Assembly (NCBI GenBank): GCA_035716185.1
Contig: DASTJZ010000075.1
Span: 59,467 to 123,466, forward strand
Direction: 5' to 3'
Length of the DNA: 64,000 nt
Origin: Candidatus Dormiibacterota bacterium
Lineage (GTDB): Bacteria; Chloroflexota; Dormibacteria; CF-121
The position numbers were made by a program, and so were the translations under genes. Shown one piece after another: positions 9,732 to 61,740 of the stretch (the stretch's first letter is position 1; every line of letters starts with the position of its first letter). The notes under the pieces are model-generated. The model did no database searches. It saw nothing but the letters and a program-made list of their open reading frames with translations, and had not been told where the DNA came from.

Positions 9732-10399
9732 ACCAGCTCGTCTTCGCGCTCGGCTGGGGCTTGCTTGGCGGGGTCGTGGGGGTCGGCCTGAATTACCTCT
9801 CCCGATGGCTGGCTCGCGTCGAGCAGATCGAGTTCGCGCAATCGCTGCCCGAAACGCTCTTGATGCCGGCCGTTGGAGCTGCGCTCTTCTTTCTGTTCGC
9901 CTGGCAGCTCGGGATGCAACGGCTGCTCCTCATCGACTCGGTGTACGTGGCGATCCTGGTCCAGGTCCTGGCCTTCGACCTGAAAACTCGCTACATCCTC
10001 GACCTGGTGATGTTTCCGAGCTGGGTGATCGCGCTGGCACTGGCATTCGTCACGCCCTGGACGCCTTATCTGTCCTGGCCGGGACCAGACTGGCGCACCG
10101 CCGTGCTCGCCGGCCTGATCGCGGGCGGCGTCTTCCTTCTCCTCTACCTGGGTGGACAGTGGCTGTTTGGCGCCGAGGCCTTTGGGTTCGGGGATGTGAA
10201 GCTGGCGGTGTTCATCGGGCTGGTCAGCGGGCTCACCGGCCTCCGAATGGTGCATGCCCTGCTCTATGGCGTGTTCCTGGGCGGTTTTGTGGCGATAATT
10301 CTGCTCATCACGCGCATCCGGAAGCTCAAAGAGGCGGTTCCCTACGGGCCGTTCCTGGTGATCGGGACGCTGATCATCCTCTACACGCAGGCGCCGTGA
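9728..10399 (+). CDS. Type IV prepilin peptidase family (A24) membrane aspartyl protease, no N-terminal methyltransferase domain
   Basis: GTGA overlap with aroE. Polytopic, with AFDLKTRYILD and FGFGDVKLAVFIGLVSGL (GxGDxK) catalytic-Asp motifs. Confidence 0.75.
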   Translation: MNQLVFALGWGLLGGVVGVGLNYLSRWLARVEQIEFAQSLPETLLMPAVGAALFFLFAWQLGMQRLLLIDSVYVAILVQVLAFDLKTRYILDLVMFPSWVIALALAFVTPWTPYLSWPGPDWRTAVLAGLIAGGVFLLLYLGGQWLFGAEAFGFGDVKLAVFIGLVSGLTGLRMVHALLYGVFLGGFVAIILLITRIRKLKEAVPYGPFLVIGTLIILYTQAP

Positions 10400-10906: not shown

Positions 10907-11467
10907 ATGGTTAACCCGCACGATTTCCGCAATGGCATGACCATCGAATGGGAAGGGGATCTCTGGATCGTGGTCGAGTTCCAGCAGGGTCAGAACGCCC
11001 GCGGCGATACCTTCTTTCGGACCAAGCTCAAGAACGTGAAGTCTGGGGCCATCATCGACCAGAAGTTCCGTGACAAGGACCGGTTCGCCCGCGCTCGGAT
11101 CGAGAAGGTCCCCATGCAGTACCTTTACAGCGACGGCGACCGTCATTTCTTCATGGACCTGCAGAACTACGACCAGATGCCGCTGAACGACGACCAGCTC
11201 GGCGACACGCTGAAGTACCTGAAAGAAAACACGTCGATCGACGTGCTCATGTACGACGGCCAGCCTCTCGGCGTGGAGCTGCCGACCACGGTGGATTTGA
11301 GGGTCACGCAAACGGCTCCCGGGTTTCGTGGCGATACCGCGGCCGGCGGCGGAAAACCCGCCACTACCGAAACCGGGCTCACCCTCAATGTGCCCTTTTT
11401 CGTCAACCAGGGCGACGTCGTGCGGGTCGACACCCGTAGCGGCGCCTACGTGGAGCGCGTAACGTGA
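10907..11467 (+). CDS. efp: Elongation factor P
   Basis: ATG 10907 MVNPHDFRNGMTIEWEGDLWIVVEFQQGQNARGDTFFRTKLKNVKSGAIIDQKFRD... Confidence 0.95.
   Translation: MVNPHDFRNGMTIEWEGDLWIVVEFQQGQNARGDTFFRTKLKNVKSGAIIDQKFRDKDRFARARIEKVPMQYLYSDGDRHFFMDLQNYDQMPLNDDQLGDTLKYLKENTSIDVLMYDGQPLGVELPTTVDLRVTQTAPGFRGDTAAGGGKPATTETGLTLNVPFFVNQGDVVRVDTRSGAYVERVT

Positions 11468-48188: not shown

Positions 48189-48202
<14 letters not shown>
47093..48202 (+). CDS. MFS transporter (start uncertain: CTG 47093 / ATC 47099; first canonical TTG 47129 lies inside TM1)
   Basis: The frame is open from directly after the ruvB stop: ...LQLGIVGFTFLAAGLSLYLFSAALPLYLY.... Multiple TM helices. Confidence 0.65.
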
Positions 48203-50377
<2,175 letters not shown>

Positions 50378-50421
50378 AAAGTTAAGGGTTTCTCACAGGG
50401 GCTTGCCTATACTTTCCCCGA

Positions 50422-52786: not shown

Positions 52787-53272
52787 ATGTCCGCGCCGAC
52801 GGCGAGTCAGCTCAGCCGCATTCGGGAGCTCTTTCAGCCCACCCTCAACTTCCTCGGCTACGAGCTGTACGAGCTCGACCTCACCGGAGCCGGCGGCCAC
52901 ACCACGTTGCGCGTCCGCATCGACCGGCCGGAGGGCGTAACCCTCGATGATTGCGAGCGCGTCAGCAAATCGCTGAGTGCGCTGCTCGATCAAGCGGATC
53001 CACTGCCCAATCGATACGACCTCGAAATCTCTTCGCCCGGCGCCGAGCGGCCGCTGCGAAATCTCGACGAGTACCGACGCTTCATTGGCAAGCGCGCCAA
53101 CGTTCGCTACCGAGTCGGCGAAAGCGAACAGGTTGCCGAGGGGCGGCTGACCGCGGTCTCGGACCAGATGATCGAACTTCAGCTCGGCGAGGGTAAACAC
53201 CTCAAAGTGGTATCCATCCCGTTCTCCGACGTCCTGGCCGCCCGCCTGGCCATCGACTTGTCGCGCCACTGA
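52787..53272 (+). CDS. rimP: Ribosome maturation factor RimP
   Basis: ...LFQPTLNFLGYELYELDLTGAGGHTTLRVRIDRPEGVTLDDCERVSKSLSALLD... Confidence 0.9.
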   Translation: MSAPTASQLSRIRELFQPTLNFLGYELYELDLTGAGGHTTLRVRIDRPEGVTLDDCERVSKSLSALLDQADPLPNRYDLEISSPGAERPLRNLDEYRRFIGKRANVRYRVGESEQVAEGRLTAVSDQMIELQLGEGKHLKVVSIPFSDVLAARLAIDLSRH

Positions 53273-54411
53273 TGCTCAAGTCGGATTTTCTGAAGGCGCT
53301 CGACCAGGTCCAGGAGGAGAAGGGGATCTCCAAGCAATCGCTGCTGACCCTGATGGAAACCGCGCTGGCCACCGCCTACCGCCGCGCCTTCAACCCGCCG
53401 GAGAGCATTCGCGTACATGTCGATCCGGATACCGCCCAGATCGCCATCTTCGGCCGGCGGCGCGTGGTCGAGACGGTGCAGGACCCGGCCACCGAAATCA
53501 CCCTGGATGAGGCGCGGCAGCTAGGCCAGGCCTCGATGGGTGATCTCGTTGACGTGCCGCTGCCGACCGAGGATTTCGCCCGGCTGGCGGCGCAGATCAG
53601 CAAGCAGGTCGTCTTCCAGCGGCTGCGCGATGCCGAAAAGGACCAGGTCCTCAAGGACGTGCTCGAGCACAAGGGCGAGATGGTCAGCGGGATCGTCGAA
53701 CGCATCGTCGAACGGCCGGATGGCCACACTATCTACCTCGAGCTGGGCAAGGCCGAAGGTGTGCTGCCGCCGGAGGAACAGATTCCCGACGAGACGATTC
53801 GCGTTGGCCAGCATCTCAAGGTCCTGCTGCTCGAGGAGCGCAAACGGGCCCGCGGTGCCCAGGTCGTCGTCTCCCGGGCGCACAAAGCGCTGGTCCGGCG
53901 CCTTCTCGAGTTCGAGATTCCGGAGCTGCAATCGGGGGCGGTGGTGATCCGGGCCCTGGCGCGCGAACCCGGTGTACGCACCAAGGTGGCGGTGTCGGCG
54001 AAGCAGGATGGCATCGATCCGGTGGGCGCCTGCGTCGGCCCGCGCGGCGTCCGCATCCGCAGCGTCGTCGGTGAGCTGGGCGCGGAGCGAGTGGACATCA
54101 TCCCCTGGGCGGATGATCCCGGCCAGCTGGTGGCCAATGCACTCAGCCCGGCGCAGGTCCTCAGCGTCGACATCGATCGCGAGTCGCGGACCGCGACCGC
54201 GCACGTTCCCGAAAACCAGCTCTCACTGGCGATCGGCAAAGACGGGCAAAACGCCCGGCTTGCTGCCAAGCTGACCGGCTGGCGGATCGACATCAAGCCA
54301 ACGGTTGAGGAGAGCCCTCACCCCAAGCCTCCCCCGGAGGGGGACGGAGCAGTGGTGGCCGCTTCCGACGGGGCGGAGGGAATGAAGGAGGAGTCAGGCG
54401 GCGCCCACTGA
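53272..54411 (+). CDS. nusA: Transcription termination/antitermination factor NusA (short form) with a Pro/Gly-rich C-terminal tail
   Basis: TGATG junction. N-domain, S1 and KH domains (...GACVGPRGVRIRSVVGELG..., ...LAIGKDGQNARLAAKLTGWRIDI...). Tail ...ESPHPKPPPEGDGAVVAASDGAEGMKEESGGAH. Confidence 0.9.
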   Translation: MLKSDFLKALDQVQEEKGISKQSLLTLMETALATAYRRAFNPPESIRVHVDPDTAQIAIFGRRRVVETVQDPATEITLDEARQLGQASMGDLVDVPLPTEDFARLAAQISKQVVFQRLRDAEKDQVLKDVLEHKGEMVSGIVERIVERPDGHTIYLELGKAEGVLPPEEQIPDETIRVGQHLKVLLLEERKRARGAQVVVSRAHKALVRRLLEFEIPELQSGAVVIRALAREPGVRTKVAVSAKQDGIDPVGACVGPRGVRIRSVVGELGAERVDIIPWADDPGQLVANALSPAQVLSVDIDRESRTATAHVPENQLSLAIGKDGQNARLAAKLTGWRIDIKPTVEESPHPKPPPEGDGAVVAASDGAEGMKEESGGAH

Positions 54412-54415
54412 CCCG

Positions 54416-54652
54416 CTGCGCACCTGCGTGGGGTGCCGGCAGGCCAAGCCGCGCACCCAACTGCACCGCCTGGGAATCGCGGACGGGACGATTGCCGTCA
54501 ACCCTCGCCGGCTGTCTGGACGCAGCGCCTATCTCTGTCGCGATGAGCGCTGCTGGGCGAATGCCGAGAAGCGGCGGGCGGTCGACCGCGCGCTGCAGGT
54601 GCATCTGACGGCGCAAGATTGGACAAGGCTTCGTCAGGGAATACTCAGCTGA
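54416..54652 (+). CDS. ylxR: YlxR/RnpM-family (DUF448) RNA-binding protein; probable CTG start
   Basis: (L)RTCVGCRQAKPRTQLHRLGIADGTIAVNPRRLSGRSAYLCRDERCWANAEKRRAVDRALQV. The conserved RTCVGCR lies upstream of the first canonical start (GTG 54428); CTG at 54416. Confidence 0.75.
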   Translation: MRTCVGCRQAKPRTQLHRLGIADGTIAVNPRRLSGRSAYLCRDERCWANAEKRRAVDRALQVHLTAQDWTRLRQGILS

Positions 54653-59882: not shown

Positions 59883-60808
59883 CGGCGGTCAGCTTCGGAT
59901 TTCCGGCGGCCCGCTTGATCGGACCGGCGTATCTGACGATCGGGACCTTCGACGGGGTGCACAAAGGCCATCAGGCGCTGCTGAAGCCCTTGATCGCGGG
60001 AGCGCGCCAGGCTGGCGCCGCCAGCGTGCTGGTCACCTTCGAACCGCATCCTCGGTGCGTGCTGGATCCGAATCATTGTCCGGCCAGCCTGACGACGCTC
60101 GACGAGAAGGCCTGGCTCCTCAGCCAGGCTGGCCTGGATTACGTGATCGTCATCCCCTTCACAGCCCAGGTCGCCGCCCTGAGCCCGGTGGTGTTCATCC
60201 AGCGCATCAGCCGCGGCATGCAGCTGCAGCACGTGATCACGGGCGAGGACTTCCGTTTCGGTCAGGGCCGGCGGGGGGACCCTGCCCTCCTTCGCCGTCT
60301 GGGCCAGCGCCAGGGTTTCACTGTCGAGGTCATCCCCAAGCTGACGCGTGCACGCGAACCGGTGAGCAGCTCGCGGATCCGACGACTGGTCCTGCTCGGG
60401 CAGATGCGCGCCGCTGCCCAGCTCCTCAGCCGCGACTACCTGTTTCGATCCGTCGTCGAGCATGGGGCCAAACGCGGTCGCGAGCTCGGCTTTCCGACCG
60501 CCAACCTCCGGATCGCCCCGAACAAGCTCGTCCCGGCAAGCGGCGTGTACGCCGCCTGGGTCGAGCTGAATGGTGATCGCAAGATGGGAGCGCTAAGCGT
60601 CGGCTATCGGCCCACCTTCGGCGCCCATGACCTCACGGTTGAAGTCTTCATCCTGGATTTCAGTGGTGACCTCTATGACCAGACCCTCGCCGTATGGTTT
60701 GTTCAGCGGCTGCGCGGCGAGAAGCGGTTTGCCACCGTTCCGGCATTGCAGCAGCAGATGACGCGCGATGTGGAGAACGCGAAACGGATCCTGACCGGCG
60801 CCCACTGA
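59879..60808 (+). CDS. ribF: Bifunctional riboflavin kinase / FMN adenylyltransferase
   Basis: ATGA overlap with truB. ...LTIGTFDGVHKGHQALL... ...GFPTANL... Confidence 0.9.
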   Translation: MTAVSFGFPAARLIGPAYLTIGTFDGVHKGHQALLKPLIAGARQAGAASVLVTFEPHPRCVLDPNHCPASLTTLDEKAWLLSQAGLDYVIVIPFTAQVAALSPVVFIQRISRGMQLQHVITGEDFRFGQGRRGDPALLRRLGQRQGFTVEVIPKLTRAREPVSSSRIRRLVLLGQMRAAAQLLSRDYLFRSVVEHGAKRGRELGFPTANLRIAPNKLVPASGVYAAWVELNGDRKMGALSVGYRPTFGAHDLTVEVFILDFSGDLYDQTLAVWFVQRLRGEKRFATVPALQQQMTRDVENAKRILTGAH

Positions 60809-61740
60809 TCATCGTCAACCCGGTGGCCGGAGGAGGACGAGCCCGCCCGTTCTGGGAGCGCTGCGCTGAGCAATGCCGCATGGCCAACATCGAGGTCGAA
60901 GTCTTCGAGACCCGACGCCGCGGTGACGCCGCGGCGCGAGCCGCCGAGGCCGGCGACCGCCTGGTCATTTCCGTCGGCGGGGACGGCACCGCGCACGAGG
61001 TCGTCAATGGGTTGCTCTCGAATCAACCCCCTCCCCGTCCCTCCCCACAAGGGGGAGGGAGAGACCGTCCACGCTTTGGGGCGCTGCTCCGCGGCGGCAC
61101 CGCCGGCGACCTGGCGCGGAGCGTGCCCAGTCCACGCCGGCCAGAGGATGTCCCGGCCTGGCTGGCGACCAACCGCTGGCGACCGATTGATGCGGGCCGG
61201 CTCGAAACCTCCGCCGGTGCGAGCTTTTTCATCAATGCGGCCGACGCAGGCATCGGCGCCGATGTGGTTCGCCGTGCCGCCCGTGGACCCGCCTGGGCCG
61301 GGGGCACCGCCAACTTTCTCGCCGGCGCGGTGATCAGCCTCATCACCCATCAAAACGATGCTGTCACCATGCGGCTCGACGGTGGACCGGCGGCGGGCCG
61401 TCGGGTGCGCACGATTGCCGTGTCGAACGGAGTCTATCTCGGAGGCGGCATGCGCATCGCCCCGAGCGCGCGAATGGACGACGGTCTGCTTGATGTGGTG
61501 ACGATCGCGGACATCGGGCGACTGAAGGGCATCGTCAGCCTGCCGCTACTGTATCGGGGAACGCACGGCCGGCTACGCGAGGTCGAATTCGCCCAGGCCC
61601 GTCGGGTTGAGATCGACGCCGACCACCCGGTGGGTGTCGAGGCCGACGGCGAACTGGTCGGCACCACGCCGGCGGTATTCGAAATCGTGCCTGGGGCGCT
61701 CCAGGTTATCGATTGGCAACCGTCGGGTATACTCTCGTAG
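60805..61740 (+). CDS. Diacylglycerol-kinase catalytic-domain protein (YegS/BmrU-like lipid kinase); probable CTG/ATC start at a TGATC junction
   Basis: (L)IIVNPVAGGGRARPF...LVISVGGDGTAHEVVNGL...; contains the in-frame insert ...SNQPPPRPSPQGGGRDRPRF... encoded by the C-box/G-box hairpin. Confidence 0.75.
   Translation: MIIVNPVAGGGRARPFWERCAEQCRMANIEVEVFETRRRGDAAARAAEAGDRLVISVGGDGTAHEVVNGLLSNQPPPRPSPQGGGRDRPRFGALLRGGTAGDLARSVPSPRRPEDVPAWLATNRWRPIDAGRLETSAGASFFINAADAGIGADVVRRAARGPAWAGGTANFLAGAVISLITHQNDAVTMRLDGGPAAGRRVRTIAVSNGVYLGGGMRIAPSARMDDGLLDVVTIADIGRLKGIVSLPLLYRGTHGRLREVEFAQARRVEIDADHPVGVEADGELVGTTPAVFEIVPGALQVIDWQPSGILS

Follow-up and report, generated by a model that had tools for sequence, protein, structure and literature searches.

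Short palindromic repeats in and between bacterial genes have been described in several systems, with which we compare here a C-box/G-box element at the 3' end of nusA, carried on a 64,000-nucleotide (nt) stretch of DNA, hereafter the window, from a Candidatus Dormiibacterota bacterium (Chloroflexota, Dormibacteria, CF-121; assembly GCA_035716185.1, contig DASTJZ010000075.1, positions 59,467 to 123,466 of the forward strand). REP/BIME elements and REPINs are mobilised by RAYT transposases and are marked by a GTAG-type head, inverted doublets and a cognate RAYT gene. Rickettsia palindromic elements (RPE), about 100-150 bp long and AT-rich, were reportedly found by Ogata et al. in 2000 to lie in frame in protein genes and to be translated as an extra peptide in tolerant regions. 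Closest in layout is the BoxC/PIT/TMECO class (work of Hoyne and Maher from 2000 and 2002, cited by Holder et al., 2015), of which only E. coli TMECO oligonucleotides have been shown, by circular dichroism and nuclear magnetic resonance (NMR), to fold in vitro into an intrastrand triplex of class II, the purine motif (Holder et al., 2015; PMC4666352). According to the same work, TMECO occurs 3610 times in 262 proteobacterial genomes, with related G/C-rich motifs in cyanobacteria, Thermus and others; in E. coli its copies are always intergenic, without strand bias, often arranged as inverted A+B pairs and without reported phage association. It has been linked to local genome instability, which together with polymerase stalling in vitro makes up its documented effects, and PIT elements showed neither promoter nor terminator activity in E. 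coli (PMC4666352).

Comparison of the window with 80 related soil-metagenome loci (778 kb in total; 842 kb with the window) establishes that the nusA-tail element is a repeat, inserted and translated, that varies in copy number and integrity. We consider it probable that this tail is a decayed copy of a dispersed repeat that entered nusA in an ancestor of the clade, that shares the architecture of the triplex class and that is carried as a passenger, the family persisting through its structure or through copying. The gene and the blocks of its copy are located as follows.

53272 to 54411, plus strand: nusA, short form, 379 residues, with Pfam domains NusA_N (5-124), S1 (134-198) and KH_5 (233-301).
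54313 to 54348, plus strand: nusA-tail repeat copy, degenerate, encoding SPHPKPPPEGDG; a profile of related copies, run with nhmmer, matches 54314-54344 at E=0.004 (842 kb searched).
54315 to 54324, plus strand: C-box, the third-strand block, CCCTCACCCC, for a family consensus of CCCCCACCC.
54328 to 54335, plus strand: C-arm, the 5' arm of the hairpin, CCTCCCCC, with contiguous pairing only of 54330-54335 with 54339-54344.
54339 to 54347, plus strand: G-arm, the 3' arm of the hairpin, GGGGGAcGG, for a consensus of GGGGGAGGG; the C at 54345 breaks the stem.

Spelled out as AGC CCTCACCCC AAG CCTCCCCC GGA GGGGGAcGG A (54313-54348), the copy lies in frame in the nusA open reading frame (ORF), and a GGA loop separates TCCCCC from its pairing partner GGGGGA. 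The TCCCCC/GGGGGA stem with an upstream C-box that an earlier, sequence-only reading had picked out in this tail is thereby confirmed in sequence, frame and statistics; of the limits it had proposed, 54315-54345, the start stands and the end falls short, since the 33-nt string ccctcaccccaagcctcccccggagggggacgg runs 2 nt further, to 54347. Its estimate of about 80% identity to a copy in the tail of queA agrees with a global alignment against 49216-49253, in which 32 of 40 columns are identical (80%; 32/36 ungapped), and the two copies share 21 of their first 24 nt. Because the degenerate 24-mer AGCCCYCACCCCRASCCTCCCCCG, with up to three mismatches allowed, has two matches in the window and none in any of 100 shuffles, and because TCCCCC-N1-12-GGGGGA occurs twice where 0.14 matches are expected, this similarity is not a matter of chance. 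With the family consensus the nusA copy agrees at 29 of 39 aligned positions. The same reading took NusA to be the short form with a tail outside any conserved domain, and rightly so: the Pfam domains end at residue 301, Pfam detects no C-terminal acidic repeats in the window protein, and no match falls in the tail from about residue 347 on. A second KH domain (PF26594) is precomputed for NusA relatives.

Copies across the window and the related loci, whose NusA proteins are labelled by their sources as Chloroflexi/Chloroflexota, Dormibacteraeota or Limnocylindrales, were recovered first by a loose regular expression (83 matches) and then by an nhmmer profile with a cut-off of E<0.01 (113 copies). 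Their consensus of about 38 nt reads GCCCCCACCC-TG(A)-CCCTCCCCC-(GCAAGC / AGA / GGA / ACAA)-GGGGGAGGG-A, an intact copy being composed of the C-box CCCCCACCC, a linker of 2-3 nt, the C-arm CCCTCCCCC, a variable loop and the G-arm GGGGGAGGG; written as an oligonucleotide, the G-strand is CCCTCCCCCGCTTGCGGGGGAGGGTCAGGGTGGGGG. About the linker, C-box and C-arm are mirror images of each other (CCCCACCC, N2-3, CCCTCCCC), so that the single non-C position falls in register. The repeat is thus multi-copy and dispersed, and its stems are more conserved than its loops: the blocks are 0.88-0.98 identical and the linker 0.65, while the loop takes the forms GCAAGC, AGA, GGA and ACAA. Concerted evolution was considered and rejected, as loops within a contig belonged to the same class in 28 of 42 pairs, where chance alone would give 27 (p=0.42). 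Copies occupy nine or more separate sites, namely the following seven and two others.

Site 1: just 3' of the stop of the gene upstream of queA.
Site 2: queA tail.
Site 3: 2-7 nt past the tgt stop.
Site 4: nusA tail.
Site 5: end of a gene for a protein with the C-terminal peptide GHTLVL.
Site 6: ribF tail.
Site 7: inside a lipid kinase gene.

Two of these sites hold better-preserved copies in the window, where the identities of QueA, Tgt and YlxR are confirmed by Pfam.

49216 to 49253, plus strand: queA-tail copy, intact, with C-box 49217-49226, C-arm 49229-49239 and G-arm 49242-49252; E=1.7e-8.
61027 to 61061, plus strand: copy in a lipid kinase gene of YegS/BmrU type, in frame in mid-ORF (frame 60802-61740), encoding PPPRPSPQGGGRD.

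With a 10-bp stem, nine perfect triads, no mismatch and a 3-nt linker, the queA copy forms the end of an ORF (48189-49268) that closes with AGCCCCCACCCCGACCCTCCCCCGCGAGCGGGGGAGGGA, translated as 13 residues. The kinase copy, with nine triads and one mismatch, sits between GGDGT...NGLL and PRFGALLRGGTAGD.

Judged by its predicted architecture, the element is a member of BoxC/PIT/TMECO, a class of intrastrand-triplex motifs already on record. On the G-rich strand the order is pyrimidine arm, loop, purine arm, 2-3-nt linker and G-rich block GGGTGGGGG, with predicted triads of G*G-C at every position except the single A, read as T*A-T or A*A-T; in layout the element and the TMECO pattern, CCCTCNCCC-N3-6-GGGNGAGGG-N3-GGGNGAGGG, are reverse complements. 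Among the 113 copies, 69 have at least eight in-register triads with at most one mismatch, and 66 of these also lie within the linker and loop length limits, the linker being mostly 2-3 nt. The ITxF definition of a triplex motif, namely three successive blocks, a pyrimidine block, a purine block that pairs with it by Watson-Crick rules and a third that forms G*G, A*A or T*A triads in register, with stems of 6-15 nt, loops of 1-6 nt and at most one mismatch (PMC4666352), describes the family and, in the window, the queA and kinase copies, for which a triplex would be predicted. Shared with the BoxC/PIT/TMECO class are the three-block layout on the opposite strand, a loop of 3-6 nt, a linker of 2-3 nt and a G block in antiparallel register; blocks of about 9 nt, with conserved stems and variable loops; and a high copy number per genome, relatives differing by copies gained, lost or partly deleted, with no established function. 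The differences are that the blocks here are CCCTCCCCC, GGGGGAGGG and GGGTGGGGG rather than of the CCTCNCCC type, that the host is an uncultured soil Chloroflexota clade, that the copies stand at the ends of ORFs, and in one case in mid-ORF, always with the C-rich strand as sense, whereas E. coli TMECO is always intergenic and unbiased, and that the duplications are tandem and direct, whereas TMECO copies are often inverted pairs. The family accordingly lies outside the strict E. coli TMECO description with its consensus, intergenic position, lack of bias and inverted pairs.

The same G-rich strand could in principle adopt a G-quadruplex instead, a possibility acknowledged by Holder et al. for such sequences (PMC4666352): in intact copies the antisense strand, GGGGGAGGG-TCA-GGG-T-GGGGG, offers four G-tracts joined by loops of 1-3 nt, with the hairpin as competitor. 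We hold this very improbable, because a quadruplex has no need of the C-arm, yet all three blocks are conserved, because the G-tracts of the nusA copy are interrupted, and because NMR of TMECO in vitro gave a triplex and not a quadruplex (PMC4666352).

That the nusA tail is a DNA-level insertion and not a conserved protein motif follows from the comparison of relatives, since close relatives share its codons, rare ones included, and distant relatives lack it. Nearly all NusA relatives above about 85% identity carry an SPHPxPPPxxGEG-type tail after LTGWRIDIKP, while those below that level are without the repeat tail and have unrelated short tails instead. Over the 107 nusA codons that precede the tail, the first, second and third codon positions are 0.95, 0.965 and 0.605 identical in pairwise comparison, and the 4-fold sites 0.52; the recognisable nusA elements are 0.82 identical, and third-codon positions inside the three blocks reach about 0.93 as against 0.605 in the preceding codons, a contrast that covers only profile-recognised copies (52 of 68 distinct loci) and is inflated upward by that choice. 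Rare codons ending in T or A (CCT, CAA, GGA) are kept, and it is these that the structure requires. Relatives thus do share the tail, but with the same codons rather than unrelated ones, and the earlier proposal of a DNA-level C-box/G-box element in a non-conserved tail draws support from copies in other genes, in other frames and between genes, and from the distant NusA proteins without it.

Other sites also exist in filled and empty states. Of 33 distinct loci, 14 have the element in the queA tail; empty queA tails end 2-6 codons past GDCM(L/F)I, where the stop codon and the tgt start overlap in GTGA or ATGA. After tgt, filled sites have about 44 nt more than empty ones between the stop and the conserved TTAAGAGTTTCTCATCGG...TATACT, and one locus (L040) resembles an internal-deletion derivative. 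Most kinase homologs have 30 residues between GGDGT and GTAGD, and 7-10 more occur only in the window kinase and five close relatives (PPPHPSPQGGGR, PPTPMPPRQGGGR and similar); in the DNA alignment this is a net 30-nt insertion that most homologs lack, and two relatives (P0153, L202) resemble partial deletions that retain the G-arm. Instability is apparent both in these deletion derivatives and in tandem copies, two to four of which stand in the tails of some NusA relatives (one to four overall). In another relative (L072, about 960-1020) nusA is joined from its first KH region (..VVGELGS) straight to the repeat through a large internal deletion, which may be real instability or an assembly artefact.

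These observations bear directly on whether the tail could be a selected protein feature, such as a proline-rich linker or a NusA interaction motif, with its likeness to queA DNA as a by-product. The SPHPxPPPxxGEG sequence is indeed common to most close NusA relatives; but translation of the element uses three or more frame combinations, giving PHPALPRERGRG, PTLPSPRGGG and PPPRPSPQGGG elsewhere, and is also present between genes, its synonymous positions are conserved down to the rare codons, NusA proteins below about 85% identity do without it, its copy number ranges from one to four, and it has no Pfam match. A protein-level role for the tail is, on this evidence, exceedingly improbable.

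The nusA copy of the window is itself in poor repair. Its contiguous Watson-Crick stem is 6 bp and its in-register triad run five; manual block alignment gives one stem mismatch (C54345) and one third-strand mismatch (T54318), the latter being the T within the C-box CCCTCACCCC. A 51-nt fold of this copy reaches -19.7 kcal/mol (z=+0.48), no better than shuffled sequence, as against -23.3 kcal/mol (z=-2.7) for the queA copy. In the closest relative (L205, NusA 95% identical) the C-box and the G-arm (GGGGGAGGG) are of consensus sequence and the C-arm is mutated (CCCTCCgCC); since each copy has its own disrupting substitutions, the two are decaying at different positions. Between window and relative, 5 of 35 element positions differ, compared with 4 of 45 in the flank. 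A trace of a second tandem copy is preserved nearby.

54370 to 54382, plus strand: G-arm remnant of a second tandem copy, GGGGCGGAGGGAA, aligning with the intact G-arm CGGGGGAGGGAG of the closest relative.

The nusA copy of the window is most likely a translated passenger in the course of degeneration. In the history that we favour, the repeat was inserted into the 3' end of nusA in an ancestor of the clade; as none of its forward frames contains a stop codon, it is read through as a Pro/Gly-rich tail, and the number of tandem copies has since varied between one and four. In intact copies the arms would form a hairpin, and the complement of the C-box, GGGTGGGGG, would fold back in register on the purine arm of the G-rich strand, giving C-G*G triads and one T-A*T triad, that is, a putative class II intrastrand triplex. 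The peptide would be a by-product without a role in NusA, tolerated because this end of the protein lacks structure and varies among all the relatives, and we infer that the family persists by its nucleic-acid structure or by a copying process, and that in some relatives the G-arm was co-opted as the Shine-Dalgarno sequence of the gene that follows. Tandem duplication and partial deletion would fit replication slippage and the instability reported for TMECO.

Several points weigh against this account. The nusA copy (54315-54347) falls outside the ITxF intrastrand-triplex criteria, with its 6-bp stem and five triads. Among profile-recognisable copies the element diverges by 0.18 as against 0.395 at third-codon positions, about half, and evolution at half speed hints at a constraint that suits pure junk poorly. 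The sense orientation is uniform and mostly at gene junctions, unlike that of TMECO, which leaves room for a role at the RNA level. For the repeat family, both function and copying mechanism are conjectural, and the triplex is here a prediction from sequence; for TMECO itself, a stable triplex was not detected in vivo (PMC4666352).

Orientation deserves closer consideration. All 113 copies lie on the plus, or sense, strand, the few minus-strand matches being the palindromic half only. As about 95% of coding sequence in these loci is itself on the plus strand, the real statement is that some nine independent insertions are all sense-oriented, a suggestive outcome with a chance probability of about 2^-9 in a small sample. 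A replication-strand explanation was set aside because GC skew is near 0 and uninformative; orientation bias as a general property was likewise rejected, copies in co-directional contexts of a many-phylum sample being divided 23 to 28. In a Chloroflexota bin (CF_136; L196, 2274-2304), a copy between two minus-strand genes has its G-rich strand as sense; because it opposes both neighbouring genes, the phylum as a whole does not share the sense orientation of the copies around nusA.

It is at the gene junctions that a functional alternative would have to operate, and here the gene next to nusA comes into play.

54386 to 54652, plus strand: ylxR (DUF448) reading frame, directly downstream of nusA; Pfam match from 54419.

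The alternative holds that the repeat is an mRNA junction module, whose hairpin hides the GGAGG of the G-arm behind the anti-Shine-Dalgarno-like CCTCC of the C-arm until ribosomes melt it, coupling the translation of tgt or ylxR to that of the gene before. The positions are suggestive: filled queA sites place the G-arm 5-14 nt ahead of the tgt start (in the window its GGAGG is 14 nt upstream of the GTG at 49265), upstream of queA it lies about 11 nt before the ATG, and in about 20 relatives an ATG or TTG opening ylxR follows the last G-arm by 3-6 nt (GGGGGAGGGAGATGTTG). Every site is sense-oriented, moreover, and the blocks are conserved above third-codon positions. Empty queA/tgt junctions nonetheless work by simple overlapping GTGA or ATGA; copies past the tgt stop, at the end of the GHTLVL gene and inside the kinase are far from start codons; and a role for the hairpin alone leaves the conservation of the C-box unexplained. 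The window nusA copy stands 67 nt from the stop with a broken stem and no ylxR start codon behind it, and PIT elements lacked promoter and terminator activity in E. coli (PMC4666352). The G-arm as a general ribosome-binding site of ylxR was rejected, being so placed in only about 20 of some 70 loci and not in the window. Translational coupling of this kind is in our estimation unlikely, and a broader version, in which a BoxC-like cassette is selected here as a sense-oriented module at the junctions of genes in essential operons, combining a masked Shine-Dalgarno sequence and stop-proximal structure, giving rise to new tails and surface loops of proteins and receiving insertions of a second small mobile repeat, is quite unlikely.

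An intrinsic terminator is a GC-rich hairpin followed directly by a T-run. The repeat shares with it a GC-rich hairpin at gene ends, and the copy after tgt stands just before a conserved promoter-like sequence. This candidate was rejected on the grounds that the 3' flanks (gagcag, agccac, agagac, tgattg, acaatt) contain no T-run, that orthologous empty sites leave no room for a terminator, that many copies lie within operons or ORFs, and that PIT elements had no terminator activity (PMC4666352). In about 40 relatives (L006-L080; about 50378-50421 in the window) the gene that follows tgt has in front of it the strongly conserved sequence TTAAGAGTTTCTCATCGGGGCTCACCTATACTTTCCCTCGCATGCGC, which looks like a promoter with its leader; insertions of the repeat fall between the tgt stop and this sequence.

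Returning to the preferred reading of the tail as a decayed, inserted repeat, the other palindromic families resemble the element in part. Like an RPE, it is a palindromic repeat in coding genes and is translated, but it is only about 38 nt long, is composed almost entirely of C and G, has a third block and is unrelated in sequence. Like REP/BIME elements, it is a short GC-rich palindromic repeat, found mostly at gene 3' ends, and can be a target for other insertions; the alignments differ in having neither a GTAG head nor inverted doublets, and no RAYT gene turned up, although no search for one was made.

A second repeat of about 57 nt, GCCTCAAACGCTCGCATGGCACTAAAGCGCCGCTCGCGTGGGCCGGCGGGCCC, is nested in three C-box/G-box copies (L004, about 10250-10330; L052, about 1480-1560; L047, about 11040-11115), at different sites and different internal positions, with flanks GCCCC/GCCCC or GAC/GAC. 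The pattern suggests a small mobile element that targets the motif. Nesting of this repeat accounts for NusA tails such as ...NARIALERGSRGPAGP..., and the repeat is also found on the minus strand upstream of rimP in four loci (L004, L008, L010, L052). It has no Rfam match.

Beyond the clade, the exact pattern CCCCACCC-N2-3-CCCTCCCC-N3-9-GGGGAGGG was scanned for and found in at least 120 stretches of a species genome collection (L081-L200), and viral contigs (L206-L285) are also among the matches listed. Bacteroidota, Cyanobacteria, all proteobacterial classes, Planctomycetota, Nitrospirota, Chloroflexota, candidate phyla radiation lineages and Gastranaerophilales (31% G+C) are represented among the listed matches, whose hosts span 31% to 73% G+C. 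Arrays also occur among them, with three copies about 340 nt apart (L104), three about 154 nt apart (L124) and five in 14.8 kb (L208), and some listed matches are inverted pairs. Intergenic copies of the many-phylum sample lie between convergent genes in 27 cases and between divergent genes in 8. Clustering of the ORFs within 3.5 kb in 120 many-phylum loci revealed no recurrent neighbour, such as a transposase, no family exceeding 11 of 120; at the Rfam gathering score, the window, 18 many-phylum loci and 5 related loci gave tRNA matches only. Literature searches with exact sequences returned eukaryotic matches or none, and family-name keywords added nothing to Holder et al.

Relative to the literature consulted, the host clade, the block sequence, the in-frame residence in essential genes and in mid-ORF, the uniform sense orientation at the sampled sites and the nesting of a 57-nt repeat in three independent copies are new. 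Translation of the motif inside the essential genes nusA and queA and in the middle of a kinase gene has not been reported for E. coli, nor have copies that stay recognisable where the synonymous sites of relatives have strongly diverged. Filled, empty, decayed and duplicated sites together provide a natural comparative set for weighing selfish, structural and regulatory roles, and a junction module, if true, would be the first functional handle on a pan-bacterial motif known since the 1990s. For annotation, tails and loops of the SPHPxPPPxxGEG type are to be regarded as repeat-derived rather than as functional protein motifs.

Two reading frames beside the element share an unusual trait. From the in-frame stop at 54383-54385 to the conserved RTCxGC at 54419, ylxR has no ATG, GTG or TTG, and the same holds in about 25 relatives; the lipid kinase (start region 60694-60830), too, is without a canonical start near its conserved N-terminus PLIIVNP, unless it begins at an ATG at 60694 inside ribF, 108 nt (36 codons) upstream of that N-terminus. 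Such start-less frames point to non-canonical starts or unusual coupling in the lineage, to judge from the reading frames.

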